64,000 nucleotides of DNA, from NCBI GenBank assembly GCA_003151815.1, contig PLYN01000040.1, positions 5,859 to 69,858 on the forward strand, written 5' to 3'. This DNA comes from Bacteroidota bacterium (GTDB lineage Bacteria; Bacteroidota; Bacteroidia; 2-12-FULL-35-15). A program made the translations under genes and the position numbers. Positions 36,946 to 56,217 of the stretch are shown piece by piece. Under the pieces are notes generated by a model. It made no database searches and was not told where the DNA came from. It was given only the letters and a program-made list of their open reading frames with translations. Every line of letters begins with the position of its first letter. Within the stretch, counting starts at the first letter, position 1.

Positions 36946-38598
<1,653 letters not shown>

Positions 38599-38618
<20 letters not shown>

Positions 38619-38877
38619 AATTGAAAATATTATATGATATTATTGATAATTTATATAGTCCGTCAATTAATTCTTTTGCGTCTTGTTCACTAATATCAGC
38701 AAATACTTCATTGCTTTTCACTTGTTTAATAGTTAACTTTTTAGGATTCTCAAAATTATCCATACGAGAATAGAAAAATGTACTCGCTGCTGATGCTTCT
38801 TTATCCGCAAAATTTTCAAATTGTTTTTCTTGTTTTAACCCTTCATCTGTTAGTTTTTCATGTTTAAAATTTGACAT
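38599..38877 (-). CDS. Hypothetical small protein, overlaps the recombinase start
   Basis: 92 aa; 20-nt overlap with the recombinase start. Confidence 0.45.
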
Positions 38878-38985: not shown

Positions 38986-39888
38986 TTAATCAAATATTAC
39001 TTTTACAGTATTTGAAATTTTTGTTATCATTCCCTTATGGCTCTTTAATTCAATATCCTGATATGAACCTTCCTGTAAAATATCTACGATTCGTTTTTTT
39101 GGATTTTCAGATTTTGTTAGTTTAAGATGTTTCATCTTTTTGTCTAAAAAGCTAATTGAAATAGTATCATAATTACCATTATGAATTAGTTCCATTAATC
39201 TAATTTCATTGGGTTCTAATAATTTTAATTCAGGAAATAGATAAACACAATTTTTATCAAGTAAAAAATCTTTAATTATTTTTGAAATAGATATGTTAAT
39301 ATGAGATTCGTAAAGTTTTAATTCTCTAATTTCCTTATCATAAAGCTCCTCTTTCCCTTCATACCAAATTACTACACCGCCGTTTTTAAATAAAAGAATT
39401 GAAGTCGGTATTTTTTGAAGTATGGAGTGAATTATTGCTATATAAAAATGTGTTAATCCTTCTTCATTAACTTTTTTTTCTCCGTCCAACATTAGTTGTA
39501 TTATTTCATCTTTTTCTGCTTCGGCAAAGGACATTGTCTTTTTTAATTCATTAATATTCTTTTTAAACTCTTTGTATAATGGCTTTGAATCTATCAATTC
39601 AAATAAAAAATCTTTGGATTCCTTTATTAATTCAATAGGAACACCTAAGTCCCTCATTTCAGAAATTACCCTTATCCAAGCATAATCTATGAAACTGAAA
39701 TTTCGCCATTGAGGTTCATTTTTTCTCTGTGAACTTAATATTCCTTTTTTATCCCAATAGTTAATATTAGTATATGTTACACCGACATCTTTCGGATTAA
39801 ATATTTCTTTATTCATTGACATAGCCAATTCAATTGACTTTTCAAATGTTTTTGCTCCAAAAAACGGGTCAAGAATTAATTTGTTCAT
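38986..39888 (-). CDS. MerR-like HTH protein (candidate island regulator/excisionase)
   Basis: N-terminal DVGVTYTNINYWDKKGILS...WRNFSFIDYAWIRVISEMRDLGVPIELIKE follows the MerR-type HTH/wing pattern; 300 aa. Confidence 0.5.
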   Translation of the reverse strand: MNKLILDPFFGAKTFEKSIELAMSMNKEIFNPKDVGVTYTNINYWDKKGILSSQRKNEPQWRNFSFIDYAWIRVISEMRDLGVPIELIKESKDFLFELIDSKPLYKEFKKNINELKKTMSFAEAEKDEIIQLMLDGEKKVNEEGLTHFYIAIIHSILQKIPTSILLFKNGGVVIWYEGKEELYDKEIRELKLYESHINISISKIIKDFLLDKNCVYLFPELKLLEPNEIRLMELIHNGNYDTISISFLDKKMKHLKLTKSENPKKRIVDILQEGSYQDIELKSHKGMITKISNTVKVIFD

Positions 39889-40725: not shown

Positions 40726-43700
40726 TCACGGTGATAGATCTTTAATTTTAAATTGGAAGTAGTAATCTTTTGGTCGGGCTAAAAATCTTGGATTATCTTC
40801 AAAACTTTCTCCTTTATCAAAGGAAAATAAATCTTTTATAATATAGATGTTTTCATCTTGTACCAAAGCCATTTCGTATTTGTCAGGTTCAGACAATCCT
40901 TTATCTTTTTCAGAATTAGAAATAATAAAGTAATCGTCAGATATAGCTTTAACTTCCAAATATTTCCAATCGCCTTTATCGTTTTTATATTCAATGTCAT
41001 AATGCAGCTTATCGTTTTTATCAGGTGTTGTGGAGTTTCCTGATACCCACTTCACATGATCAACTCCATGTTGTTTGACAAGCGTATTGTAAACTAATAC
41101 CTCTGCATTTTTTCCTTTTCGTTTTTTCCCTTGTTCACCTTGTCCAGAATGAACCCAACTACCGCCACCGTTCGAACCTCCGCCAAATGAAATCAACTTT
41201 CCGTTTTTGCTCAATGATGCGTCAATTATTTTACCAGTTACTTTTGCATTATCTCCACTATTATTTGAATCGGTCTCATTGTCGGTTGCGAAATTGATTT
41301 TTAAATACTCCTCAACTAATTCCGAATTGCCTTTAAAAAACATAATACTACGAACAGCTTGGTCTGTAATGTCTGTTTCTTCAATGCCGTATTTTTTCAA
41401 AAGGTCGGTGTAGTAATTCTTTATCTCTGTATTGTCAGAAAGGGAATCGTCAATAGTGATTTGAAAATATTTTTTTATTAATCCCTTTAACTCTTTTAAA
41501 TATTCAACATTCAACTCAAATTGCATAGAAATAATTTTGTCTTCAATTAAAAAAATGAATTCAAGATTGTATTTGTTAAGTGTTGAAATAAATTTTGCTT
41601 GTTCGCCTTGCTCTGCATTTAATTTTTTCCAAAGCGATTGCTTAAATTTATTCTCAATATCTTTTAGTGTTTCTTTAAATCTTTCTTGATGCCAATTAAA
41701 TAATCCCTGTGGTAAAATCTTTTTTACACCAAGCGAAAGTTTAGTGGATATAATTTGGATGAGTTCAAAACTTGTTTTGTTTTTGAAATTTTCAAAATCA
41801 ACATGCTTATAATCTTCAGATAGTTCTATTCCTAAAACTTTCAAAATATTTTGTTTTAGCTTTTTTGTGTTTTCAATTGGTTCGTGGAGTTGTTTTCCTT
41901 TCAGGGCAAAAATTGTTTTCCAAAAGTCAATTTCAATTCTTGAAATTCCAAGCAATTGAAATGCTTGTTCAACTTTTTCTTTACCGAAATCTTGTGTAGC
42001 TAAATGATGAGTATCTTGAAAATCATTTTTAAAAATTTGTCTGAAATCATTTTTCAAATCGTTCACCTTAAAAACAATACACATCATTTCTGCGAAAGCA
42101 TCACAGAAGATTGAATCTTTTCTTAATTCGCTAAGTGAAGTTAAGTTATTGTCCCTGTAATAAAATTCGTCTTTCACATTGATAAACTCTTTTTCTTCAA
42201 CTGGAATTTTTTCGTTGTCGCCAAATTTGAAATAGCATTCGTTTACGATATGAATTCTACATTGCCTTAAAGTTTTTGCCTCTTTCCCTTTTGTATCGGT
42301 ATCTGTTATTTTTTTTTTAAGGTTTGGTGCATCTAATCTGTATGCTAAAATGTATGGCTTTATTTGGTCAAATAGTTTATTGAGTTCTGCATCGCATGGG
42401 CTATGCTTAATAGTGCTTTCGTCAATTTCAATTTTAAATTCTCGTAAACTTTTTACGCCAAAATATTTCTCTACATTATCTTCCCCAACTCTTTTGGGAA
42501 GGTTTAGTATGTGTAAAGTATCAAGAATTTTTCGTGGTAGAATATTGTTGTCGGTGTAGTAAATACTATCACTCTTTTTATATTCTTCAACTGCCCCTTT
42601 TTTAGAAAAAAAAATCAAATCATCAGGAACAGGAAATTCTGATTCCTGCTTTACCAAACTTTCTAATGCCATTTTGTAAATACTCTGTGTCGCCTTTCCT
42701 TTCTTGGTTGCATCTCTTTCAGGAATGGCATTAATAATTTCATAAATATTTTCAGGTGAAATTTCATTGAAAGATTCTTTAGCACCTAATTTAATCAGAA
42801 TGGATTTTACTTCTGTTTTATTAATTCCGTATTGATTTAGAAACTCATAATCAATTTCAAAATTTTCATTGATAAGTTTGTTTAGTTCTTCTCCACCTTC
42901 TTCCATTACATACTTTGTGAAAATATCAGAAGAAATAAATTGATAGCGTATGTATGAATATTCAGGGAATATTGTTGGTCGCCACCTTGTAAAATACCAA
43001 TCAATCTTTTCACTATTGGATTCCAATCTTAATCTAATCTGCTCATCTTTTAGAGTAAGAAGTATTAAATGAGTTATTGGAATTTTTAGTAGTTGTTCAA
43101 AGTTCATAATTTTTGAAAAGAAAATATTCTTTGCGAATGTTCCTCTATCAAAATCATCGGGCTTATCTAATCCAGTAGCAAAAATGAAATTGAAATAATT
43201 TTGCTCTGACCAGTTGCTTACCACATTAACTAATTCAATTTTGGAAAATTTATTTACACCCAACCATATAAAAAAAGTTTCTACAAGAGTTTGTTCTTCG
43301 TCTTCCAAACTCCAAAAATCAACTGATGCTAAATATTCGTTTGCTTTTATCGTATTACTATAAATGGCTTCTGTTAATAGTCCGCTTGGATATGTTTTGC
43401 TTAAAAACAAATCCTCCGAATCAATAATTTGTTTGGTTTTTGAAACTAATGGAACTGTAATTTTTAATTTCTCTTGTCTGTTCTCTATGTGCTTAAAATT
43501 AGCATATAACGCAATTATCATTTCTCTGATGCAAACGAGTTTCTCTTTATTGTTGCGAAAGGACTTTAAAGCGTCTTTAGTACCAGTAATAATTTTGTCA
43601 ATTACATTGTTGCTGTCGTATGGTTGTAAATTGACAACGGATTTTATTGCTCGTTGAAGTTCTCTTGATTTTGGTTCTTTTTTATCAAACGAACTTTCAA

Positions 43701-45294
43701 AGTTTGAGATAAGCAAATCAAACAATGCTGATTTCATAAAATCAACTTTCACCGATTTCGGAATACTAAATTTTTCATCTGACCTTATAACCGGAGTAAA
43801 AGCTAAGTCATCTTTGGGTATAACCTTATCCGATTCGTTGACAAGCAATGAAAAACGCAAAGCATCGTCAGTAAATGAAATGACTTTTGAAAGTTGAATT
43901 ATTAATGTAGCACGATTGGGAATTGAAATATCTGTTAGTGATAGCTCGTCAATTTTTTGAACTAAGTATTCCGAATTGAATTTATCGTTTGCAAATTTCC
44001 CTTTTAGTACTTCTCCTAATGGTAAAATTAGCCCAGGTAATGTTGTGGGAAAATTTTCTTGAAAAAACGAATTGAATTCATCGCTGTAATAAACTGCTTC
44101 ACTCAATGCTTGATATTGGTTACTAATGCAGGGGTAAATAGTTGCTTCCTTTTTTACTGTTTCCAAATCATTATAGAATGCCTCAATTAATTTTGAATCA
44201 GAAGTTCTTTGCGTAGGAGTTAGTAATTTATATGGTCTCCAGTCTATTTTTTCGGTAGTGAGAAACAAAGCACAATCTTTTAATAACTTAACCAATTGTT
44301 TCAGGATGTATTCATTCTTTTTGGAAGCGTTCAAGTGATTTCTTGAACTGTTTAATTCAAATGTGCCGTGAATGATACAAGGCAGTGAAATTGATAATTG
44401 AGTAGGAAAATAATTGAATAGTTTCTTATAATCGTCTGATAAATTATCACGAAGGGCAACCTTTAAATTGAAGGACTGTTTTTCGTTTTGGTTTTTATCC
44501 TGATACTCATCAGGCAATATATTATCTCTTGAAAAAACCTTCCACGACTTGTCTTTTATTTTTACGGATTCGTAATCACTCTTTGGCTTTTTAATGCTTG
44601 CTAATTCTATGTTTTCATTTTCGGCAGTATGAATTGTTATTTTTTGAATGTTGTTTAGGAATAAAAGAATTTCTTCTTTGATTTCTGCAAGTTGGTTTTC
44701 AATATCAGTTTCAAATTCCTGTTTGCAAAAAATCTCAATACTGGTTGTCCATTTCGTTTTTGTATCATCGTCTTGAACACTTGGAATAGCTAATGTTGGA
44801 AAAGGCAGAGCTTCTTTTGTTAGGTTTCTTTCCTCTCTAATTTTTTCCTTGTCGCTTTGCGACAAGTTTAATTTATTATTGAAAACATCTTTCGCAATAG
44901 CATCAGAGAAAGATAGTTTACAACCATTGGTGCAAATGTTTATGAGTGTTGCCCAGTTGAGAATTGACCTAAAGCCCAGTCCTTTATTTCCAATATAACT
45001 TACTTTAGTTTTTGTGCTGAGATTGGCAAGCATCAATGACTTTATTCCCCCAACTGAAAATGCTTCACCTTTATTTGAAATGATTAGTTGAGAAGTGGTT
45101 TTGTTCCAACTTATTTCAACTTCTTTAGAACCTGCATCATCTGCATTTTGCAGAAGTTCTAATAACTGCCTGCCGTTATATTCTTTTGTAAGTTCTACCT
45201 CCCTGTTATAATCAGATAAAAACCTATCGGGGTTATCACAATAGGTTTTAAGGTTACTATCAATCAACTTTGCTATTTCCTTTTTAAAATTCAT
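40726..45294 (-). CDS. 1522-aa GHKL (sacsin/NO VEIN-type) ATPase with a C-terminal DUF3883-like PD-(D/E)xK nuclease domain
   Basis: N-box ELLQNADDA (aa 46-54) and G-box GNKGLGFRS (aa 102-110). Gly-rich linker GGGSNGGGS. C-terminal GKNAEVLV...HYD(1433)IEY...LE(1447)VK(1449)...SNSEKD. Confidence 0.7.
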   Translation of the reverse strand: MNFKKEIAKLIDSNLKTYCDNPDRFLSDYNREVELTKEYNGRQLLELLQNADDAGSKEVEISWNKTTSQLIISNKGEAFSVGGIKSLMLANLSTKTKVSYIGNKGLGFRSILNWATLINICTNGCKLSFSDAIAKDVFNNKLNLSQSDKEKIREERNLTKEALPFPTLAIPSVQDDDTKTKWTTSIEIFCKQEFETDIENQLAEIKEEILLFLNNIQKITIHTAENENIELASIKKPKSDYESVKIKDKSWKVFSRDNILPDEYQDKNQNEKQSFNLKVALRDNLSDDYKKLFNYFPTQLSISLPCIIHGTFELNSSRNHLNASKKNEYILKQLVKLLKDCALFLTTEKIDWRPYKLLTPTQRTSDSKLIEAFYNDLETVKKEATIYPCISNQYQALSEAVYYSDEFNSFFQENFPTTLPGLILPLGEVLKGKFANDKFNSEYLVQKIDELSLTDISIPNRATLIIQLSKVISFTDDALRFSLLVNESDKVIPKDDLAFTPVIRSDEKFSIPKSVKVDFMKSALFDLLISNFESSFDKKEPKSRELQRAIKSVVNLQPYDSNNVIDKIITGTKDALKSFRNNKEKLVCIREMIIALYANFKHIENRQEKLKITVPLVSKTKQIIDSEDLFLSKTYPSGLLTEAIYSNTIKANEYLASVDFWSLEDEEQTLVETFFIWLGVNKFSKIELVNVVSNWSEQNYFNFIFATGLDKPDDFDRGTFAKNIFFSKIMNFEQLLKIPITHLILLTLKDEQIRLRLESNSEKIDWYFTRWRPTIFPEYSYIRYQFISSDIFTKYVMEEGGEELNKLINENFEIDYEFLNQYGINKTEVKSILIKLGAKESFNEISPENIYEIINAIPERDATKKGKATQSIYKMALESLVKQESEFPVPDDLIFFSKKGAVEEYKKSDSIYYTDNNILPRKILDTLHILNLPKRVGEDNVEKYFGVKSLREFKIEIDESTIKHSPCDAELNKLFDQIKPYILAYRLDAPNLKKKITDTDTKGKEAKTLRQCRIHIVNECYFKFGDNEKIPVEEKEFINVKDEFYYRDNNLTSLSELRKDSIFCDAFAEMMCIVFKVNDLKNDFRQIFKNDFQDTHHLATQDFGKEKVEQAFQLLGISRIEIDFWKTIFALKGKQLHEPIENTKKLKQNILKVLGIELSEDYKHVDFENFKNKTSFELIQIISTKLSLGVKKILPQGLFNWHQERFKETLKDIENKFKQSLWKKLNAEQGEQAKFISTLNKYNLEFIFLIEDKIISMQFELNVEYLKELKGLIKKYFQITIDDSLSDNTEIKNYYTDLLKKYGIEETDITDQAVRSIMFFKGNSELVEEYLKINFATDNETDSNNSGDNAKVTGKIIDASLSKNGKLISFGGGSNGGGSWVHSGQGEQGKKRKGKNAEVLVYNTLVKQHGVDHVKWVSGNSTTPDKNDKLHYDIEYKNDKGDWKYLEVKAISDDYFIISNSEKDKGLSEPDKYEMALVQDENIYIIKDLFSFDKGESFEDNPRFLARPKDYYFQFKIKDLSP

Positions 45295-45333
45295 TCCACG
45301 TTGGCTTCTTTTGGTTATTTTTTCATTTGAATT

Positions 45334-45570
45334 TTAAATTTCACGGAGCCAAGGCAATTTCTTAAGTTGGTATTTTCCAAATTCCTTTAAATAATTATTT
45401 GCCCATTCTATCCCACTATCTATTTGGTTTTCCAAATTAGCATTTTTGTATTCAAATTTTTTTATGTTTGTTAGGTGATGGTATAAATCATCAAACATCC
45501 AAGTCGCTCCTTTACCTTCTTTTTGCATGTTCCGCACCGCCTCTAAATAAAACTCCGTGTGGTAAAACAA
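45334..45570 (-). CDS. 78-aa ORF overlapping the end of the truncated hsdM in another frame; doubtful gene
   Basis: Non-ATG start; no HsdM C-terminal motifs (no LP.nlF-type strand). Confidence 0.2.
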   Translation of the reverse strand: MFYHTEFYLEAVRNMQKEGKGATWMFDDLYHHLTNIKKFEYKNANLENQIDSGIEWANNYLKEFGKYQLKKLPWLREI

Positions 45571-46639
45571 TTGCCATAGTTCCGTTCTCCGCCAAATGAT
45601 GTATCATGTGTTGCACAAAAGCAAAATCAGCTTTGCTGCTTGGTGCAAGTTTACCATATTGGCTAAAGCGGTCATCACTTGTAAACAAAGGGTTGGCACT
45701 CCACTGTGCGGAGAATGGGGGATTGGCTACAATGGCTTCAAAAGTTTTGTTTAAATGCTGTGGGTGTTCAAGTGTGTCCTCTTGTTTAATATCAAACTTG
45801 CGATAATGCACACCGTGCAAAATCATATTCATTCGTGCAAGGTTGTATGTAGTCCTATTCATTTCCTGTCCGTAAAAGTTGCTTACTTCTTTTACTTCCT
45901 TAGCCACACGGAGCAATAAAGAACCTGAACCACAAGTGGGGTCGTAAACAGATTTTAATTTGCTCTTTCCTGTGGTTACAATTTTTGCCAACACTTTACT
46001 TACCTCTTGCGGTGTATAAAATTCTCCCGCAACCTTTCCCGCCCCACTTGCAAACTTTCCGATTAGATATTCATAAGCATCACCCAATACATCCAATTCA
46101 GTTTGCTCCAATTTAAAATCAATTTTATCAAGGTGTGATAGCACTTTTGCAATAATTTCATTTCTCGCTTCGGGTGTTTTTCCCAGTTTCGTACTGTTCA
46201 AATCCATATCCTCAAAAAGATTGTCGAAATCTTCTTCGCTATCAGTTCCCATTGTACTGAGTTGGATATTAGTCAGAATTTTTTGTAAGTCTTCAATAAT
46301 GAAATTATTTACTTCTTCAATATCACTATTGCCACGTTTAGCAACTTCACTAAACAGTTCGGACGGTTTTAAAAAGTACCCTAATTTTTCTAATGCTTCT
46401 TCTTTGATTGCTTCAATGTATTCTTTGCCTTGCTTGGTATTTTCTTTAATGGATTTGTAAGTGATTTTATCAGTTTTCAAAATGGTATTTGCATAAATCT
46501 CCATTTTTTCTGCAAGGTATTTATAGAAAATAAAGCCCAAAATATAATCACGGAATTCGTCCGCATTCATTTTACCTCTTAGCGTATTGGCTATATTCCA
46601 AAGCTGTTGTTCAAGTTGTTTTTTTTGGTCTTCTGACAT
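45512..46639 (-). pseudogene. hsdM: C-terminally truncated type I R-M methylase subunit (HsdM-like), orphan
   Basis: HsdM_N-type N-terminus (LWNIANTLRGKMNADEFRDYILGFIFYKYL); motif I VYDPTCGSGS (aa 231-240); motif IV NPPF (306-309). Ends 5 aa after LPHGVLFRGGAE. No hsdS or hsdR nearby. Confidence 0.65.
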
Positions 46640-46684: not shown

Positions 46685-49600
46685 TTAATGCACCAATATT
46701 TCTGAAATTCTTTTCCATTCCTGACCGGAAAGCTTTGAATTCTTTGGGGCAAGATTATCCCAATCTTGGTTAGTCAAAGATTTAATTGTACTACGGATTT
46801 CTTTAAGGGAAGTAGGTTTACTTTGGTCTATTATAGGTGTTAATGTGAATGCTAATCGCCTTGGAATACCTGCCATTCTCATTAATAAAGCATCTTTATT
46901 ATCAACTCCAAAATAAACCAAAGATGGAACAAATGAATTTTCTTTAATGTCAAATTCACTTCCATTAACAATGCCTTCTAATGCACTTAACCCCCAAGAT
47001 GCTTTAAATCTTGAATCGTTAATGTATTTGATAAATTTATTTATTCTATCAGATTCGCTTGCAATATTTGCAAAGGTTTGATGATATGAAGAAATATTAA
47101 ATAAGTTCTCCCCTTTAACCCAACCAATTAAAACATTTGCAACTGATTCAGGGCTGAATTGCGCACTTCTGTTTTCAGTACCTAATTTCGTTTCTCTTAG
47201 CTGTGCAATTACTCTTATTTTTTCAGTGAGGTAATCATTATTGAAGTTAAATAAATTACTCGGCTCCCAACTTTCTGGTGATGAAATTTTAGGATTGCTT
47301 GAGTTTTCAGCCATAATTGCTAATACAGAGGGAACAGAGAACCCTGTTTTATCTGCATAAACCAAAACCCCCTTTTTATATTTATTTTGAAGATGTACAA
47401 AAATTGCTTTACAAACTTCAATAAATTTTTTACGTTTATCATTATCGGTTATTTGAAAATAACCTAAACTATCTTTAAATAAATCTTCTATTTGAAGAAC
47501 TGAACTTTCATTCGTACTGTTCAATAAATGGATTAAATATTGAATGAGTGGAGCTAAAGAATTATGATATTTTTCTGACAAAACATTAATTGCACTTCTT
47601 TCGGAGTTAGCAATTATATATAATATGTCATCAGCTTCATTTAAAAACTCCAATAATACACTTACAATATCAGTTGTGCTTTTTGTAATTATTTCTTTGG
47701 CTTTATTTGCATTTTCAGTAGAATTAAACGGAAATATTAACTTACCATAATTATCTACTAATGTTCTCCCTGCTCGCCCTGCAATATTCCAAAAATCACT
47801 TGAGCTTAACTCACCTCCCTGCCCTTTTTGATAGGAATCAAAGTAAACTGCCGAAACAGGAAAATTAACCCCTTCAGCTAAAGTGCTTGTAGAGAAAATA
47901 TATTTAATTTCTTTTTGGCGAATAAGGTGTTCAATTAACAACTTTGTTTCATCAGATAAACCTGCGTGATGAACTGCAATTCTTTTCGATAATACATCTG
48001 ATAAAATAGTAGGTCGTCCAACTTCATCTTCAATGTATTTTTTAACAAGAGATATACTCTCAGATACATTATTTTCAGTTAATTTTGATGCTATATACTG
48101 TGCTTGAGTATCTGTTGTTCCAGCACCTTTGCAAAGGAATAGGATAGATTTATTATCCTGTGTAAAATGCTTGGCACTAAATTCCATCAAATTCTGTTTG
48201 TCCGTACCTGTTAAATCATAAGGATTATTCATTATCGGCAACTCCCTTTCTATTACTTCAGGGTCAAAAACAGAAGGAAGATGCGTAAACGATATTTGTT
48301 TAAACTTGTTTTTTTGTTTAATCCCAATTAATAACTTCTCGGCAGGTTTCCAATCTATTTGAATTGGAACTTTAATTTTATTTCCACCAATCCAGTTGGC
48401 TAATAATTCTCCTGAATTTTTTAAAAATGGAGAAAGGAACATAAACTTTGATTCAGGTCTTTCCCTTTTTAATATTGACAATAGTAATTCCAATCTTGCA
48501 CCACGACTTCCGTTCTGAATGGAGTGAGCTTCATCAATTATGAAAAGGGATACATCTTCAACCGATTTATGTTTTCTACGAATTAACAAATCAATTTTTT
48601 CAGGGGTTGAAACAAGTATATCAATTTTATCGCTTAATATTTCATTTTCTGATGGGTCAACCTCAATTGCTCCCGATGTTTTTTCGATTGCGAAATCTAA
48701 TCCTTCAAAATCAGTTTTGAGGTCATTATATATTTGATTAACTAATGCACGAGATGGAACAATATAAATAACCTTAGATTCATTATTTAGCGCCTTTGTT
48801 ACAATGATGTTAAACTCAGCCAATAATGTTTTACCTGCACTTGTTGGCATTTGTACAACCGTTACATTAGACGCAATATCTAATAGGTTTTTATTAAGTG
48901 CCTCCCTTTGTGATGGTAATAACTCTATGATTCCATTTTCAATTTGATTTTTCTTGACACAAAACTCTTTGAGTTTTTTTATTTGAATAGAATTCGTAGA
49001 ATACCAAATTGAATTTCGTTCAATTGTAAGCAGATTTGATTCTAAAATATTTATTATCGAAGAAAATCTTGGTAACGCTTTAAAAATTTCACGAGCAACG
49101 CTTGTGTGAATTCTAATTTCGCTATCTAATCTGTTTTTATAATTGTATCCTTCAATTAAAAATTCGGATGTTTCAGTTATTGGTTTTGTTAAATGATATA
49201 ACCCAAGCAAGTATTGAGCTTGTTCGATAACCTCAATTTCATTATTTAATTTACTTAAATATTTCTCTTCAAATTCCTTTTGTTCACTTTTTAATTTAGA
49301 TATAATTTCTAAACCAGTTTTAATATCTGTATATCCTTTATCTTTTCTAACTAATAAAATGAACGCTTGAAATAAATTATTTAAAACACGTTCTTCCCAA
49401 TCATTTCTTGAATAATCCTTTACATCGAACTCCCTTAAATCAAGCCTAATTTTAATTGTTTTATCTGAAAGTAGAGCCAAAGAGGATAAAAAGAAATAAT
49501 ATAACAACTCGTCATCTAACTTTTGAATTCCAAAAACAGAGTTGAATGTTTTTTTAAAGTCATTGCTTTTTATATCGTATGATTTCAATAAGGTATAAGC

Positions 49601-49807
49601 AGTTTGAATATACTTTTTCTCTGCAATTGAATCTGAAAATATATGATTTAATAAAACGGAAGCTAATCGAAGATTTTTAATAACACTTTCTGGACTTTCC
49701 TCTATTTGACTAAATCCTAATTCTGATTCCAAATAAATATCCTCCCTATCATTAATACATTTAATGATTTCAGAGTCGTTTAAAATAATATCTATTAGGT
49801 CTGCCAT
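46685..49807 (-). CDS. hamB: Ski2-like DExH helicase (HamB-like)
   Basis: Walker A MPTSAGKT (aa 320-327); DEAH (425-428) followed by SRGARLE; motif VI-like GRAGR; ~300-aa N-terminal and ~400-aa C-terminal extensions. Confidence 0.6.
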   Translation of the reverse strand: MADLIDIILNDSEIIKCINDREDIYLESELGFSQIEESPESVIKNLRLASVLLNHIFSDSIAEKKYIQTAYTLLKSYDIKSNDFKKTFNSVFGIQKLDDELLYYFFLSSLALLSDKTIKIRLDLREFDVKDYSRNDWEERVLNNLFQAFILLVRKDKGYTDIKTGLEIISKLKSEQKEFEEKYLSKLNNEIEVIEQAQYLLGLYHLTKPITETSEFLIEGYNYKNRLDSEIRIHTSVAREIFKALPRFSSIINILESNLLTIERNSIWYSTNSIQIKKLKEFCVKKNQIENGIIELLPSQREALNKNLLDIASNVTVVQMPTSAGKTLLAEFNIIVTKALNNESKVIYIVPSRALVNQIYNDLKTDFEGLDFAIEKTSGAIEVDPSENEILSDKIDILVSTPEKIDLLIRRKHKSVEDVSLFIIDEAHSIQNGSRGARLELLLSILKRERPESKFMFLSPFLKNSGELLANWIGGNKIKVPIQIDWKPAEKLLIGIKQKNKFKQISFTHLPSVFDPEVIERELPIMNNPYDLTGTDKQNLMEFSAKHFTQDNKSILFLCKGAGTTDTQAQYIASKLTENNVSESISLVKKYIEDEVGRPTILSDVLSKRIAVHHAGLSDETKLLIEHLIRQKEIKYIFSTSTLAEGVNFPVSAVYFDSYQKGQGGELSSSDFWNIAGRAGRTLVDNYGKLIFPFNSTENANKAKEIITKSTTDIVSVLLEFLNEADDILYIIANSERSAINVLSEKYHNSLAPLIQYLIHLLNSTNESSVLQIEDLFKDSLGYFQITDNDKRKKFIEVCKAIFVHLQNKYKKGVLVYADKTGFSVPSVLAIMAENSSNPKISSPESWEPSNLFNFNNDYLTEKIRVIAQLRETKLGTENRSAQFSPESVANVLIGWVKGENLFNISSYHQTFANIASESDRINKFIKYINDSRFKASWGLSALEGIVNGSEFDIKENSFVPSLVYFGVDNKDALLMRMAGIPRRLAFTLTPIIDQSKPTSLKEIRSTIKSLTNQDWDNLAPKNSKLSGQEWKRISEILVH

Positions 49808-49809
49808 TC

Positions 49810-50643
49810 TTATTTAGAACATATCTCTTGAACCTTGTTGTAAAAAAGATCAACCGTATTTTCTATACTTTGATTAAAATTAACTATACAAAAACTTATT
49901 TGATGTGGGTCAAAATCTGTTTTTTGAGTAAAAAATTTCCCGTAATCATCATCAACTTTAACGCAATTTATATCTCGAATTAAGGCACAACCAAAAACTA
50001 AATCATATTTGTCATTCTTATCAAACTCTATTAAAAGCAATGCTATGCCAATTTTTGTAGCATCTTCGCCCGATAATTTACGAGTATAATCACTTAATTT
50101 ATTTAGTAACTCTTGCTTGTTGTTTTTAAATTTAAGTTGTGTTGTGTGCATTGAATCCTTAGTGTAATCAACTACATCGGGTGGATTTTTAACTTGATGA
50201 GACACTTTAGCTTCGCCAATAAGTAGCTCAATTTTATCATTAATTAATCTATATCCAACTGCATCAATTCCTCTTCCCGGTAGCTGCGCTAATTCTCGAT
50301 TGGTAATATTTTTGTAGGGAATTTTAAACCTTTCTTTTTCGGGAAGTTTCTTTTCAAAAAAAGAAGTCAGAAGCATTTCGCCTAAATCACTTCTGTATAT
50401 ATCATTAATTACAGCAGGTGTTTTACCCGCATCTCTATTAATATCTTTTGCAACCGAATTTCGTGTAATAATTTTTTCTAATTGTTCTCCATTAAATCCG
50501 TGTGATTGAAACAATAAAGATTTCTCAATTGAATTGTAATCGAATTTGGTTTCCGAACGCTGTTTTATATATAAATTAGAAATACGTTCTATGTATTCGT
50601 CATTTACAGTTACGTCTAATTTTTGAAAATTGTGCTTTGACAT
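49810..50643 (-). CDS. hamA: DUF1837-like PD-(D/E)xK nuclease (HamA-like)
   Basis: 277 aa. GID(127)AVGY...LLIGE(144)AK(146)VS nuclease triad. Sits 2 nt upstream of the helicase gene, the Hachiman gene order. Confidence 0.55.
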   Translation of the reverse strand: MSKHNFQKLDVTVNDEYIERISNLYIKQRSETKFDYNSIEKSLLFQSHGFNGEQLEKIITRNSVAKDINRDAGKTPAVINDIYRSDLGEMLLTSFFEKKLPEKERFKIPYKNITNRELAQLPGRGIDAVGYRLINDKIELLIGEAKVSHQVKNPPDVVDYTKDSMHTTQLKFKNNKQELLNKLSDYTRKLSGEDATKIGIALLLIEFDKNDKYDLVFGCALIRDINCVKVDDDYGKFFTQKTDFDPHQISFCIVNFNQSIENTVDLFYNKVQEICSK

Positions 50644-50694: not shown

Positions 50695-51072
50695 GTAAAT
50701 GTAAAAAAAAATCTCATTTAGATTTCATTTAGAGGGAGGGTATTTTAACACGCACCCTCTAATAACTCTATAAGCCTGTGTTAATAAGCCTCTTAAAAGA
50801 CATTTAGCTCTCCATTCCGTTTAAATCTGCCATTTTGAATTGGAACTTTTGAATGAATCAGGGGGAATATCATTCACTAAATATCCGAATTTCTCCTTCC
50901 TGATTAAACCTGCCATTTTGAATTGCTTTACCTTTTTCAGCTTAAAAAAGAAGACGATATGAATGATAGTGATATTGCCTATCTAAAGAATGGTTATGTT
51001 ATCATAGATTTATCTACTTGTCTAAACCAAAAAGAAAACATAATTTGGGGGAAATCCAATATAACGTATTAG

Positions 51073-53067: not shown

Positions 53068-53367
53068 ATGAGCGATTTAGTTTACGACATAGAAAAAGTT
53101 TTTTCAAGCTATCTTTCTGAAGATGGAAAAACGCATTACAATATCCCCGAGTATCAACGAGGGTATAAATGGTCGTCTGTCGAAGTAGAAAAAATGCTCA
53201 AGGATATTAAAAGGTTCAAACCGGAAGAAGATAAATTTTATTGCCTACAAAACATTACAATCGTTCCAAAAGAAAATTACACTTACTACAGTCAGGATGC
53301 ACAATTCTATCCGGCATTGTCCCCGATAGAAAATGCAATTAAATCGGTTCCTGTAATTACGAATTAA
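53068..53367 (+). pseudogene. N-terminal fragment of a DUF262 (GmrSD-like) gene
   Basis: YNIPEYQRGYKWS motif. The ORF ends at 99 aa, before the expected DGQQR block; the remainder is absent. Confidence 0.6.
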
Positions 53368-53438: not shown

Positions 53439-53651
53439 ATGTTAGCCAAAATAATAGGACAAATCATCCAACAACGCAGAAAAGAGCTGGGAATAACACA
53501 GCCCGACTTAGCCGAGTTAGCCAGTGTGAGCAAAAATACGCTCTACAAATTAGAGCGAGGACAAGGCAATCCATCTTTGGATGTTTTAACTAAGTTAGCA
53601 GAAGTATTAGGTTTGGAATTGAAATTAGAAGTAAAAAAAAATAAACTTTAG
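53439..53651 (+). CDS. hipB: XRE-family HTH protein (HipB-like)
   Basis: RRKELGITQPDLAELASVSKNTLYKLERGQGNPSLDVL is a classic Cro/C1 HTH. Confidence 0.8.
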   Translation: MLAKIIGQIIQQRRKELGITQPDLAELASVSKNTLYKLERGQGNPSLDVLTKLAEVLGLELKLEVKKNKL

Positions 53652-53681
53652 ACAATATTTCTTTAGGAATTAATATGATCC

Positions 53682-54011
53682 ATGAGAAAAGCAGAAGTAT
53701 ATCGTAACAGAGAATTAGCAGGAGTACTTTCAGAAGAAGTACCCGGACGGAATTATACATTCCGTTATGAGGATACCTACTTTGCTGATAAGGATAAACC
53801 CGCCATCAGCTTAACATTACCTAAAATACAACAGGAATACCGCAGTAAATTTTTATTTCCATTCTTCAGCAACATGCTTAGTGAAGGGGCTATTAGAAAA
53901 CTGCAAAGCCAATTACTTAAAATAGATGAAAGAGACGATTTTGGAATTATGCTGGCAACTGCACAGTATGATACCATTGGAGCCGTTACCGTAAAACCAA
54001 TCAATAATTAA
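53682..54011 (+). CDS. hipS: HipA N-terminal subdomain protein (HipS-like)
   Basis: 109 aa; ELAGVL...FRY...ISLTLP...PFFSNMLSEG...DTIGAVTV matches the HipA N-subdomain pattern. Confidence 0.75.
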   Translation: MRKAEVYRNRELAGVLSEEVPGRNYTFRYEDTYFADKDKPAISLTLPKIQQEYRSKFLFPFFSNMLSEGAIRKLQSQLLKIDERDDFGIMLATAQYDTIGAVTVKPINN

Positions 54012-55016
54012 ATGAGTTTACCAACTATAAAATATTGTCCGGGAACATTAGCAGAAGGATTTACAACATACAGTACAACATGTCTGCGAAGTACGTTTAA
54101 TGGAAAAAAAGTAAGTCATGTATTGCCGTTTGAATCACCACAACAAAGTGAAGAAATAGTAGCGTTGTTTATGGAAAATATGAAACACATTTCTATTTCA
54201 GGTGTGCAACAGAAACTAAGTTTGGTGCAGGAGAAAAACTTACTTCGCTTAACGAATGAAAATGAACAAGGCACGCATATTTTAAAACCAATTCCATCTT
54301 TGTTGAAAAAAGCCGGTATGCTTCCGGCAAATGAACACCTCAGTATGCAAATAGCACGACAGGTATATGGAATAAACACGGCTGAAAATGCTATGATATT
54401 TTTTAAGGACGGCACACCTGCATATATTACCAAACGCTTTGATGTAAAGCCAGATGGTGGTAAGTTGGGTAAAGAAGATTTTGCAACATTGGCTGGTAAA
54501 ACCAAAAATATTTCAAATGAAAATTATAAGTACGAATTCAGTTATGAAGAATTAGGTTTACTCATTCAGAAAAATGTTCCGGCATGGGTAGTAGAAATTG
54601 AAAAATATTTTTCGTTGGTACTTTTCAATTTTCTTTTCAGCAATGGCGATGCACACCTGAAAAATTTTTCACTTTTAGAAACTTCAAAAGGAGATTATAA
54701 GCTCAGTCCTGCTTATGATTTGATAAATTCAAGGATGCACGTGGACGATAGCGACTTTGCTTTTAATAAAGGATTATTTGCTGATGGTTTCAAGTCTGAA
54801 AAATTCAAAAAGAACAATCACCCATATAAAAAAGATTTTGCGGTGTTTGGAAAAAGAATAGGTATGCAGGAAAATAGGATGGAGCGGATAATTCAGTCAT
54901 TTATAGAAAAACAGAAAATGGTTGAAATACTCATAAATCATTCATTTTTGGATGATGCGGGCAAGAGAGGATATTTATTGCAATACAAAACGCGAAGGAA
55001 TTTTTTAATTGGCTAA
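54012..55016 (+). CDS. hipT: HipA-family Ser/Thr kinase lacking the N-subdomain (HipT-like toxin)
   Basis: Gly-rich loop S61-I-S63-GVQQK; catalytic loop NGDAHLKNFSLL. The ATG directly follows the hipS-like stop. Confidence 0.8.
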   Translation: MSLPTIKYCPGTLAEGFTTYSTTCLRSTFNGKKVSHVLPFESPQQSEEIVALFMENMKHISISGVQQKLSLVQEKNLLRLTNENEQGTHILKPIPSLLKKAGMLPANEHLSMQIARQVYGINTAENAMIFFKDGTPAYITKRFDVKPDGGKLGKEDFATLAGKTKNISNENYKYEFSYEELGLLIQKNVPAWVVEIEKYFSLVLFNFLFSNGDAHLKNFSLLETSKGDYKLSPAYDLINSRMHVDDSDFAFNKGLFADGFKSEKFKKNNHPYKKDFAVFGKRIGMQENRMERIIQSFIEKQKMVEILINHSFLDDAGKRGYLLQYKTRRNFLIG

Positions 55017-55099
55017 TATAATAATTGATTATTGGTATAAAGATTAGGAATGAAAAAATGTTTTAAGTAATCCTTTAAAGCACTTTGTATTTCGATTGA

Positions 55100-55146
55100 T
55101 TAAATTTGCCCCAATTATTTATATCATAACAAATTTTTAAAAATCA
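55100..55146 (+). repeat. Left copy of an imperfect direct repeat bracketing the EamA gene (contains TAAATTTG)
   Basis: ttaaatttgccccaattatttatatc is identical at 55100-55125 and 56171-56196. Weaker similarity continues for a further ~60 nt. Confidence 0.75.
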
Positions 55147-55211: not shown

Positions 55212-56129
55212 ATGAAACACATAAAAAAGAATGGCGTATTTCAAGCATTTATAGCCGCTTTTCTATTTAGTGCCAGTGCTCCATTATCCAAATTATTGCT
55301 CAATGGAATTTCTCCTATTATGCTTGCTGGATTAATTTATTTTGGAAGTGGGATTGCTCTTTTAACAATTAAAGGTGTTAAAATATTATTAAATAAACAG
55401 CAATTGAATAATGACTTTAACCGAAGAGAAATATTATATCTAATAGGAAGCGTATTGATTGGAGGGGTAATTGCTCCCATTATATTAATGATAAGTTTAA
55501 AAAATAGTCCGGCAGCTACTGCTTCACTTCTATTAAACTTTGAATGTGTCTCAACAACATTTTTAGCGTTTTTATTTTTTAGGGAAAAAATAGGAAAAAG
55601 AATTTGGATTTCTGTATTCTTAATAACAGTTGCAAGTATTTTATTGACAATAGATTTAAAAGATAATTGGGGATTCTCTTTAGGTTCAGTAGGAATAATT
55701 TTTGCAAGCATTTTATGGGGATTGGATAATAATTTTACAAGGAATATATCTGAGAAAGACCCATTGACTATTGTGGGAATTAAAGGATTGGGAGCTGGCA
55801 TAATTTCAATAGTCATATCACGGATATACAATAACCCAATTCCAGTAATGAATAATATTTTATTGGCAATGTTATTAGGATTATTTTGTTACGGTTTAAG
55901 TATCGTTTCTTTTGTTTTAGCACTCAGGAGGCTTGGAAGTTCAAGGACAAGCATAATTTTTGGAACAGCTCCATTTATTGGAGTAATAGTATCATTTTTA
56001 ATATTTAAGGAGATACCCAATATTTATTTTTTTATTTCTTTACCACTCATGATTTATGGAACATACCTTATGTTAACTGAAAACTATGAACTTCAAAAAA
56101 AAGCAATTAGCCATAGTTCGCTCCAATAA
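55212..56129 (+). CDS. EamA/DMT-superfamily transporter
   Basis: 305 aa; about ten TM helices arranged as two EamA-like halves. Confidence 0.75.
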   Translation: MKHIKKNGVFQAFIAAFLFSASAPLSKLLLNGISPIMLAGLIYFGSGIALLTIKGVKILLNKQQLNNDFNRREILYLIGSVLIGGVIAPIILMISLKNSPAATASLLLNFECVSTTFLAFLFFREKIGKRIWISVFLITVASILLTIDLKDNWGFSLGSVGIIFASILWGLDNNFTRNISEKDPLTIVGIKGLGAGIISIVISRIYNNPIPVMNNILLAMLLGLFCYGLSIVSFVLALRRLGSSRTSIIFGTAPFIGVIVSFLIFKEIPNIYFFISLPLMIYGTYLMLTENYELQKKAISHSSLQ

Positions 56130-56170
56130 ACGAAATTTTAAAAAATTAGACAATCACTTGGCAACAGTTA

Positions 56171-56217
56171 TTAAATTTGCCCCAATTATTTATATCCTCG
56201 CAAATTTTTTAAAATCA
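56171..56217 (+). repeat. Right copy of the direct repeat bracketing the EamA gene
   Basis: See the 55100-55146 entry. Confidence 0.75.

Follow-up and report, generated by a model that had tools for sequence, protein, structure and literature searches.

A probable Tiamat (TmtA) defence gene with a predicted Hsp90/sacsin-like ATPase module and a NOV_C nuclease domain on a mobile island of a Bacteroidota bacterium

A 64,000-nucleotide stretch of contig PLYN01000040.1 (GenBank assembly GCA_003151815.1, Bacteroidota bacterium), called the window below and always meant at its full length, carries on its minus strand one very long gene at 40726..45294, tmtA. The question raised by this locus is what a giant protein with an ATPase-like head and a nuclease-like tail does in a bacterium, and whether it does so alone. 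The gene very probably belongs to the Tiamat family of defence genes, so named in PADLOC, and its product appears to be a further member of a known family, the architecture itself not being new. A sequence-only reading of the same DNA had proposed a stand-alone defence effector made of a sacsin/NO VEIN-type Bergerat ATPase and a PD-(D/E)xK nuclease of the DUF3883 kind. The open reading frame (ORF) of 1522 amino acids (aa) is present exactly as it had been claimed, and all the quoted motifs are in place. The accompanying statement that no bacterial function had been characterised for this architecture did not survive, as the family has carried the name Tiamat/TmtA in catalogues from Millman et al. 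2022 onwards. The gene and the predicted parts of its product map as follows.

40726..45294, minus strand: tmtA (Tiamat) coding sequence, intact; 1522 aa, uninterrupted ORF, PADLOC TmtA match, co-linear with 80 homologues of ~1520 aa
44650..45174, minus strand: putative Bergerat-fold (GHKL) ATP-binding domain of the sacsin/Hsp90 type, ~aa 41-215; SACS, P_loop_sacsin, Foldseek Hsp90/TRAP1
45133-45159, minus strand: N-box E46-x3-N50-x2-D53 (motif I, ExxxNxxD), ELLQNADDA, aa 46-54; E46, N50 and D53 invariant
44965-44991, minus strand: predicted glycine-rich flexible ATP lid (motif III), G102-R109; invariant residues, predicted local distance difference test (pLDDT) score 64-70
44245..44649, minus strand: beta-rich Hsp90-middle-like domain, ~aa 216-350; invariant HGTFxLxxxR motif
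44341-44343, minus strand: codon of R318, candidate arginine finger; invariant, within HGTFxLxxxR
43195..44244, minus strand: mixed alpha/beta body, ~aa 351-700; pLDDT mostly 90-95, inside the long Foldseek alignments to full-length Hsp90
41275..43194, minus strand: family-specific middle region, aa 701-1340, mainly helical; no fold relative, phmmer matches in-family only
41140..41274, minus strand: variable low-confidence linker, ~aa 1341-1385, including GGGSNGGGS (~aa 1371-1379); entropy, indels, low pLDDT
40729..41139, minus strand: putative NOV_C/DUF3883 PD-(D/E)xK nuclease domain, ~aa 1386-1522; NOV_C, invariant E1398/D1433/E1447/K1449/E1462, Foldseek Hjc

The assignment to Tiamat is made because the PADLOC match runs from end to end of the protein and because SACS, NOV_C and P_loop_sacsin all score above their curated cut-offs. 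The TmtA model PDLC03964 aligns with aa 3-1518 over profile positions 9-1537 of 1538 (1051.7 bits, E=0). Pfam SACS (PF25794) covers aa 35-230 (E=1.9e-10, 41.4 bits, cut-off 32.8), and Pfam NOV_C (PF13020, formerly DUF3883) covers aa 1400-1480 (E=2e-7, 31.4 bits, cut-off 22.1). The NCBIfam model of the sacsin N-terminal ATP-binding domain, P_loop_sacsin, matches aa 42-120 with 65.6 bits (cut-off 50). Both domain calls of the sequence-only reading were thereby borne out. One of the two profiles that it had named for the purpose did not hold: NOV_C is matched above its cut-off, while HATPase_c_3, the MORC/MutL-like model, stays at 19.7 bits under a gathering cut-off of 25, and SACS matches instead. 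Membership in the MORC/MutL type of GHKL ATPases was ruled out, the structural neighbours being Hsp90 and not MutL or MORC. The PDB returned nothing at E<=1 for the single sequence; a profile of 81 family sequences found the sacsin ATPase domain alone (E=0.1, via the N-box).

Tiamat is represented in PADLOC by the models PDLC03964-03972. Five further TmtA models match the window protein, all in its N-terminal ~400 residues only, so that PADLOC TmtA, judged by these profiles, appears to be a set of subfamilies with a common ATPase head. Alphaproteobacterial and Streptomyces proteins of ~1780-1850 aa met among the homologue loci (L047, L052 and similar, within L046-L072; the L numbers denote single loci) belong to subfamily PDLC03971, and the part they share with the window protein is likewise the N-terminal ~400 residues only. 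'Tiamat' as catalogued thus seems to comprise several different bodies behind one ATPase head. With TmtA the window protein has in common the single gene, the N-terminal GHKL-type ATPase, the C-terminal DUF3883/NOV_C nuclease and the location in a defence island; nothing tested separates it from the family, and the other TmtA models (~1300-1780 aa) share its N-terminal ~400 residues only. Bacillaceae members are also taken in by PDLC03964 (969 bits for L032), which may hint at kinship with the experimentally validated TmtA. A Bacillus cereus TmtA is reported to have shielded E. coli from T5 and T6.

Reviews credit Tiamat/TmtA to Millman et al. 2022, and Tiamat appears in a survey list of single-gene PD-(D/E)xK defence systems. 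The name Tiamat is absent from the bioRxiv version of the source paper, as are the terms DUF3883, MutL, HATPase and Hsp90. A literature search for TmtA with phage and for sacsin-like or Hsp90-like anti-phage proteins yielded no mechanistic paper. Hidden Markov models of Tiamat also match plant genomes (PMC12409356).

A search of 5.8 billion proteins gave 1014 relatives at E<=1e-5. Among the best 120 of these 1014, nearly all are 1510-1550 aa long and co-linear, and the named source organisms are mostly Bacteroidota (Pedobacter, Maribacter, Niastella, Labilibaculum, Xanthomarina). The closest public relatives of the window protein are 83% and 77% identical to it. The phyletic spread among the matches listed is patchy and takes in Bacteroidota, Firmicutes and Proteobacteria. 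Conservation was read from an alignment of 81 sequences with 31-83% identity. Its first 1340 residues are nearly free of indels, and the sole variable stretch is aa 1341-1380, where the highest entropy and the indels are found. Invariant residues of the ATPase are E46, Q49, N50, D53, G76, F79, G102, K104, G105, L106, G107, F108 and R109; those of the middle domain are H309, R318 and N327. In the nuclease domain G1394, E1398, D1433, E1447, K1449 and E1462 do not vary, and in the family-specific region the same is true of Y913, R935, R986, W1125 and F1320. Both predicted catalytic centres are invariant across the family, and the active sites appear to be under selection. For mutational work the sequence-only reading had named N50 and D52 in the N-box and D1433, E1447 and K1449 in the nuclease. 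The nuclease residues and N50 are well chosen, being invariant; D52 is conserved merely in at least 90% of the sequences, and the best N-box targets are E46, N50 and D53.

Given the length limit, the protein was modelled with its homologue alignment as two overlapping parts, aa 1-800 and aa 640-1522. The first model has a mean pLDDT of 87.9 and a predicted template modelling score (pTM) of 0.72. Its segment of lower confidence, aa 91-110, corresponds to the ATP lid with the motif GNKGLGFRS (aa 102-110), and the reduced pLDDT there could be due to the mobility expected of a lid. The top 50 PDB matches found by Foldseek for aa 1-800 are all full-length Hsp90, TRAP1 or HtpG (E=4e-11 to 8e-9, probability 1.0), with alignments of 700-850 columns at ~12% identity. 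The likeness lies in the N and middle domains; the domain-by-domain equivalence of aa 351-700 to Hsp90 is uncertain in the model. TmtA differs from Hsp90 in having a fused nuclease and no demonstrated C-terminal dimerisation domain, and its context is defence as against the proteostasis served by Hsp90.

In sacsin, the N domain and the middle domain behind it are both Hsp90-like; the catalytic R474, equivalent to R380 of Hsp90, is placed on an element made of a beta-strand, a loop and a long helix (PMC9880540). In the aa 1-800 model, R318 is found in the loop between a strand (307-310) and a 24-residue long helix (325-348). By this geometry R318 would be the counterpart of the R474/R380 finger. 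The sacsin N-box reads ELIQNAEDA as compared to ELLQNADDA in the window protein; further common traits are the short lid and the arginine that the middle domain carries on its strand-loop-helix element. With plant NO VEIN, TmtA has the ATPase type as well as the NOV_C end in common. Unlike TmtA, sacsin consists of three repeats with Ubl, DnaJ and HEPN domains in addition and is viewed as a chaperone, and the match to it in the PDB is at E=0.1 only.

The middle of the protein is of a different kind. When aa 640-1522 were compared by fold with the PDB and the viral structures of BFVD, matches fell on the nuclease domain only and none on aa 640-1340; the pLDDT of this model is 85.1, linker aside. 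With phmmer, aa 701-1340 matched 414 proteins among 1.84 billion representatives, all of them ~1450-1580 aa long or evident fragments, and all at the same position within the protein. This region of ~640 residues appears from these matches to be confined to the family and never to occur in another architecture, and no counterpart of it was detected in sacsin or NO VEIN. Some 1280 aa had been left as unassignable in the sequence-only reading. That no longer applies to ~aa 216-700, which form an Hsp90/sacsin-like body according to the fold search with aa 1-800; it still applies to ~aa 701-1340, for which no structural match was obtained. The linker that follows falls below pLDDT 50 at aa 1338-1349 and 1371-1384 (model residues 699-710 and 732-745).

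The C-terminal domain carries GKNAE (1394-1398), HYD (1431-1433), LEVK (1446-1449) and SNSE (1459-1462). In the PDB its Foldseek neighbours are the archaeal Hjc resolvases 1gef, 2wj0 and 2wcw (probability 0.9-0.95, template modelling score (TM) of ~0.55 on the target) together with AvaII; among viral structures they are NO VEIN C-terminal, VRR-NUC and Hjc-type proteins. A characterised parallel is HmaA of the Hma system of Halomonas meridiana, a fusion of a Snf2 helicase with NOV_C that gives protection against T4 (PMC11232893). The HmaA tetrad D1084, E1104, K1106 and E1121 is needed for defence, and the isolated NOV_C domain nicks supercoiled plasmid in a Mn2+-dependent manner; its nearest structural relative is Hjc 1GEF, and the defence phenotype resembles abortive infection or dormancy (PMC11232893). 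D1433, E1447, K1449 and E1462 of the window protein reproduce the D...ExK...E pattern of HmaA with the same structural neighbour, Hjc. Both proteins join an N-terminal NTPase to a NOV_C effector, and the abortive-type anti-phage behaviour of HmaA resembles the role proposed here for TmtA. HmaA differs in its Swi2/Snf2 helicase motor, which is not a GHKL ATPase, and in its three-gene locus HmaABC; the sequence kinship of the two proteins is limited to the nuclease domain.

An autonomous, ATP-gated DNA-nicking mechanism can be proposed on the analogy of these parts. The Hsp90/sacsin-type ATPase module would act as a sensor or switch, in which ATP binding would lead to lid closure and docking of the middle-domain R318, as in Hsp90 and sacsin. 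An infection cue, recognised via the large middle body, would set off or stall the conformational cycle, and this cycle would in turn license the flexibly tethered NOV_C nuclease. The nuclease would then nick or cut DNA, by analogy with HmaA possibly as Mn/Mg-dependent nicking of supercoiled or branched DNA. The damage would halt phage replication and probably host growth, as abortive or dormancy-type defence. TmtA would work on its own, and its position near restriction-modification (R-M) genes would most likely come from the use of one insertion hotspot and from being expressed together with first-line restriction. This mechanism is put forward tentatively, as quite possible rather than probable. 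Taken in one statement with the identity of the gene, as an ATP-gated nickase of the Tiamat family, it becomes moderately probable, an overall grade that is a compromise of both.

Several points weigh against this mechanism. The TM to Hsp90 is only 0.2-0.3; the inter-domain geometry therefore differs, and the N and middle domains would be Hsp90-like in fold and otherwise arranged. In motif II, N74 (conserved in at least 90% of the sequences) replaces the canonical adenine-contacting Asp of DxGxG and is followed by the invariant G76; sacsin likewise has Asn at this position. ATP binding by sacsin-type domains is itself debated, and sacsin N-domains may not dimerise as those of Hsp90 do, so that a clamp mechanism is not assured (PMC9880540). 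The Foldseek E-values of the nuclease domain are weak (~0.4) because of the large size of the query. Reviews and papers as late as March 2026 describe the Tiamat mechanism as unknown, and what triggers the protein, what it acts on and whether the outcome is abortive are wholly matters of inference. Finally, the close association with R-M genes seen in 11 of 40 loci might point to a functional dependence and not to autonomy.

The case for autonomy comes from the homologue loci. Partner genes were surveyed in 37 non-redundant full-length loci, 33 of them from a one-genome-per-species collection (among the matches listed) and four found by looking up close relatives. All ORFs lying within 6 kb of tmtA, in these loci and in the window, were clustered all against all. 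The largest shared neighbour family is present at 5 of the 37 loci, and there is no conserved and no obligatory partner gene, which is a feature of single-gene systems. Autonomy is proposed because no neighbour recurs in more than those five loci and because the middle region is never met in another architecture. The 134-aa ORF downstream of tmtA in the window is not conserved in the surveyed loci. In L081 a small ORF of 96 aa overlaps the stop codon and was considered as a partner; being Arg/His-rich and without a counterpart in the window or at the other loci, it was taken for a spurious call and dropped.

Defence or mobile-element genes were found at eight of the nine homologue loci with annotated neighbours, the exception adjoining an unassigned cluster. 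In L087 tmtA stands beside pAgo and GmrSD, L088 is an AbiE/integrase island, and L092 has a Zorya/AbiU2 neighbourhood. The homologues have no conserved housekeeping neighbourhood, the possibility raised beforehand as one that would tell against defence, and the annotated neighbours are mostly defence genes. With the full-length TmtA match and the lack of a partner, the picture of a stand-alone effector in a defence island is upheld. A further cluster lies directly upstream of tmtA in three loci (L081 3151-8407, L019 5053-9554, L022 3-2026). It encodes proteins of 909-1218 aa, ~270-290 aa and 410 aa and a 172-aa MksE-domain protein; none of them has a PADLOC match, and the three larger ones have no Pfam match either. 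The cluster may be an uncatalogued Wadjet/condensin-like defence cluster.

For the R-M tally the 37 loci were joined by three further close relatives (L090, L091, L092). In 11 of these 40 loci tmtA is R-M-linked on the same strand, in or beside the operon. Six loci have it inside a type I R-M operon: the order is hsdM-hsdS-tmtA-hsdR on one strand in L009, L012, L025, L086 and L089 (the last two with genes 2-11 bp apart), and M-S-x-PDDEXK_13-tmtA-SLFN/AlbA_2-R in L090. In L091 it is adjacent, in the order M-S-RmuC-R-DUF3800-tmtA on a conjugative element. In the remaining four (L002, L013, L028, L039) a type IIG restriction-methyltransferase of ~1590 aa ends a few bases before tmtA. The R-M-linked loci are scattered over at least four lineages of a rough neighbour-joining tree built without support values, and three of the eight members of the window's own clade are type I-linked. 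A variety of cargo other than tmtA occupies the gap that separates hsdS from hsdR, or the position right behind hsdR (L090 6420-14527, L091 2484-7992). Cargo at this slot in Bacteroidota includes RmuC, PDDEXK_13/REase-ARP, SLFN_AlbA_2 plus HATPase_c_4, and DUF3800, and because these genes are unrelated, the slot suggests a defence-gene insertion hotspot.

In the window itself tmtA is not inside an intact type I R-M operon. It is carried on a horizontally acquired mobile defence island at a tRNA-Met gene, of which the following features are referred to below.

36946-37019, plus strand: tRNA-Met, island boundary; ARAGORN, overlapped by the 3' end of the recombinase gene
36978-38618, minus strand: large serine recombinase, 546 aa; Resolvase, Recombinase and zinc-ribbon domains
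45512..46639, minus strand: truncated type I methyltransferase (hsdM remnant), 375 aa; directly upstream of tmtA on the same strand
46685-49807, minus strand: Hachiman-like PDC-M23B helicase, 1040 aa; PADLOC PDC-M23B 660 bits, HamB models, DEAD, ResIII, Helicase_C
49810-50643, minus strand: PDC-M23A, 277 aa, upstream of PDC-M23B; weak PDC-M23A, HamA and DUF1837 matches
53068-53367, plus strand: GmrSD_N (DUF262) fragment, 99 aa; only profile positions 3-53 of 199
53439-55016, plus strand: HipBST-like toxin-antitoxin trio; HTH_3 protein of 70 aa, HipA N-terminal-domain-only protein of 109 aa, HipA_C kinase of 334 aa

Left of 36.9 kb the genes are housekeeping genes (birA-like, rsfS, ftsH, cdsA, glutamate dehydrogenase, der, era). 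The GC content falls from 0.34-0.37 outside to 0.28-0.30 inside the island, in which a MerR-like gene, tmtA, the hsdM remnant, PDC-M23B/PDC-M23A, PRiA4_ORF3, the GmrSD_N fragment and the HipB/HipS/HipT-like trio follow one another. The right boundary at ~53-55 kb is set by gene content and GC alone. No direct repeat of the tRNA-Met 3' end was found as an attachment site at the far boundary, which is expected for a serine recombinase. The recombinase ORF runs antisense through a terminator-like hairpin (37020-37066) into the 3' half of the tRNA-Met gene, and its last ~30 codons are therefore probably junction read-through. Near the recombinase, on the minus strand, are a 300-aa protein with an N-terminal MerR-type helix-turn-helix (38986-39888) and a 92-aa protein without a family match (38599-38877), which could be the excisionase/regulator pair of an integrative element.

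The hsdM remnant matches HsdM_N and N6_Mtase, the latter over profile positions 3-198 of 311 only, and ends in the middle of the methyltransferase domain. It covers positions 3-373 of 857 in the PADLOC MTase_I model PDLC03022. The HsdM of the M-S-TmtA-R operon in L089 (Maribacter dokdonensis) has 910 aa, and the remnant shares 37% identity with its aa 10-370. The flanks, including the 217 bp at 45295-45511, show in no frame a 3' part of hsdM, an hsdS or an hsdR. The truncation looks like a deletion or replacement and not like a frameshift, as far as the flanking sequence indicates. The simplest reading of the locus is that an R-M-linked arrangement decayed and left only tmtA intact.

The other island genes include a second decayed one, as the 99-aa GmrSD_N ORF is evidently a fragment of a type IV restriction gene, judging by its short profile match. 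PDC systems are candidates and not validated systems. A 34-nt direct repeat (85% identical, copies 83 nt apart at 50809-50842 and 50892-50925) lies between genes just upstream of PDC-M23A and could be an operator or promoter element. In the Hip trio the HipA_C kinase gene begins one base after the gene of the 109-aa HipA N-terminal-domain protein. A 48-nt direct repeat (92% identical, 55099-55146 and 56170-56217) flanks an EamA-family transporter gene (55212-56129); the pair may mark a small inserted cassette or be a repeated regulatory element. A scan for sigma-70 promoters and terminators around tmtA gave 33 sites as compared to 31.9 expected; Bacteroidota promoters are outside the coverage of the tool.

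The recurrent R-M linkage raises the alternative that TmtA is coupled to type I or IIG R-M systems as a second line, like PrrC in EcoprrI. The R-M complex would hold TmtA inactive or cue it, with release when a phage blocks restriction; the cue could also be restriction-made DNA ends or stalled translocation complexes, and the window copy would be an orphan left after operon decay. The embedded and adjacent type I arrangements, the type IIG enzymes immediately upstream, their spread over the tree lineages and the hsdM remnant of the window, which immediately precedes tmtA and is of the long type found in those operons, all fit this explanation. Precedents are PrrC and PARIS as guardians of R-M (PMC12707154) and GHKL ATPases in R-M systems (PMC2292703). 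PrrC of type IC EcoprrI is an NTPase-nuclease whose gene lies inside a type I R-M operon, as tmtA does in L025, L086, L089 and L090; it differs in its ABC-type NTPase, its tRNase activity and its unrelated sequence, and the embedding of tmtA is facultative. Prokaryotic MORC/paraMORC proteins combine a GHKL domain with a following basic-finger domain and occur together with nucleases and R-M operons (Iyer, Abhiman and Aravind 2008, PMC2292703), much as TmtA accompanies R-M genes in the 11 linked loci. Unlike them, TmtA belongs to another GHKL lineage, has its nuclease fused in cis and lacks a conserved helicase partner. The coupling is nevertheless judged unlikely. Adjacent R-M genes are missing from 29 of the 40 loci, and the window tmtA is intact with all catalytic residues despite the loss of hsdS, hsdR and most of hsdM. 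The same hsdS-hsdR slot is used by unrelated cargo (RmuC, PDDEXK_13, SLFN/AlbA_2, DUF3800), which speaks for a hotspot and not a partnership. The linkage extends to two R-M types that are unrelated to each other, and catalogues list Tiamat as a single-gene system.

A related possibility, rather improbable at present, is that the Bacteroidota-centred PDLC03964 branch is a conformational sensor of the Hsp90/sacsin kind, evolved to back up R-M. The insertions between hsdS and hsdR and after type IIG genes would then represent coupling, the 640-residue family-specific region would be the sensing platform, and blocked or stalled restriction complexes or their DNA ends would be sensed.

Another alternative keeps the autonomous ATP-gated mechanism and changes its trigger. 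Here the Hsp90/sacsin-like body would bind a phage protein client (e.g., a capsid, portal or DNA-mimic protein) and not DNA, and a bound client would set the ATPase cycle in motion and so release the nuclease. It would agree with the closest folds being those of Hsp90-family chaperones and not of the MutL, GyrB or MORC DNA clamps, and with the sacsin-type signature accompanied by the sub-threshold HATPase_c_3 score (19.7 vs 25 bits); a surface for clients could be offered by the large helical region specific to the family. Against it, no client, co-chaperone or protein-binding domain was identified, the C-terminal dimerisation domain of Hsp90 has no demonstrated equivalent, and nuclease-fused GHKL ATPases classically work on DNA (PMC2292703). 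The present data do not separate protein from DNA sensing, and the client-binding trigger is considered quite improbable. A non-immune role, as a DNA repair or recombination factor or as a maintenance/addiction function of the integrative element, might be imagined from the resolution of branched DNA by Hjc-like nucleases, the serine recombinase at a tRNA gene and the one homologue on a conjugative element, and is very improbable in view of the patchy, horizontally transferred distribution without a conserved housekeeping neighbourhood, the overwhelmingly defence-related annotated neighbours and the inclusion of the family in curated sets of defence-system models.

The autonomous, ATP-gated nicking mechanism thus remains the one proposed for the window protein. 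Through this analysis Tiamat gains a testable structure, with a predicted Hsp90/sacsin-like N-plus-middle ATPase module and R318 as its candidate finger. To this are added a nuclease domain apparently equivalent to the HmaA nickase, a region of 640 residues found nowhere else and a recurrent linkage to type I and IIG R-M systems. The bacterial mechanism could inform the study of plant NO VEIN, with its ATPase and nuclease, and of human sacsin, with its ATPase. If the PDLC03964 branch did evolve as a back-up to R-M, it would provide the first case of a prokaryotic immune protein that works through an Hsp90-type ATPase cycle, and it would offer a bacterial model, tractable by experiment, for the unexplained ATPase-plus-nuclease logic of NO VEIN and for the sacsin repeat.

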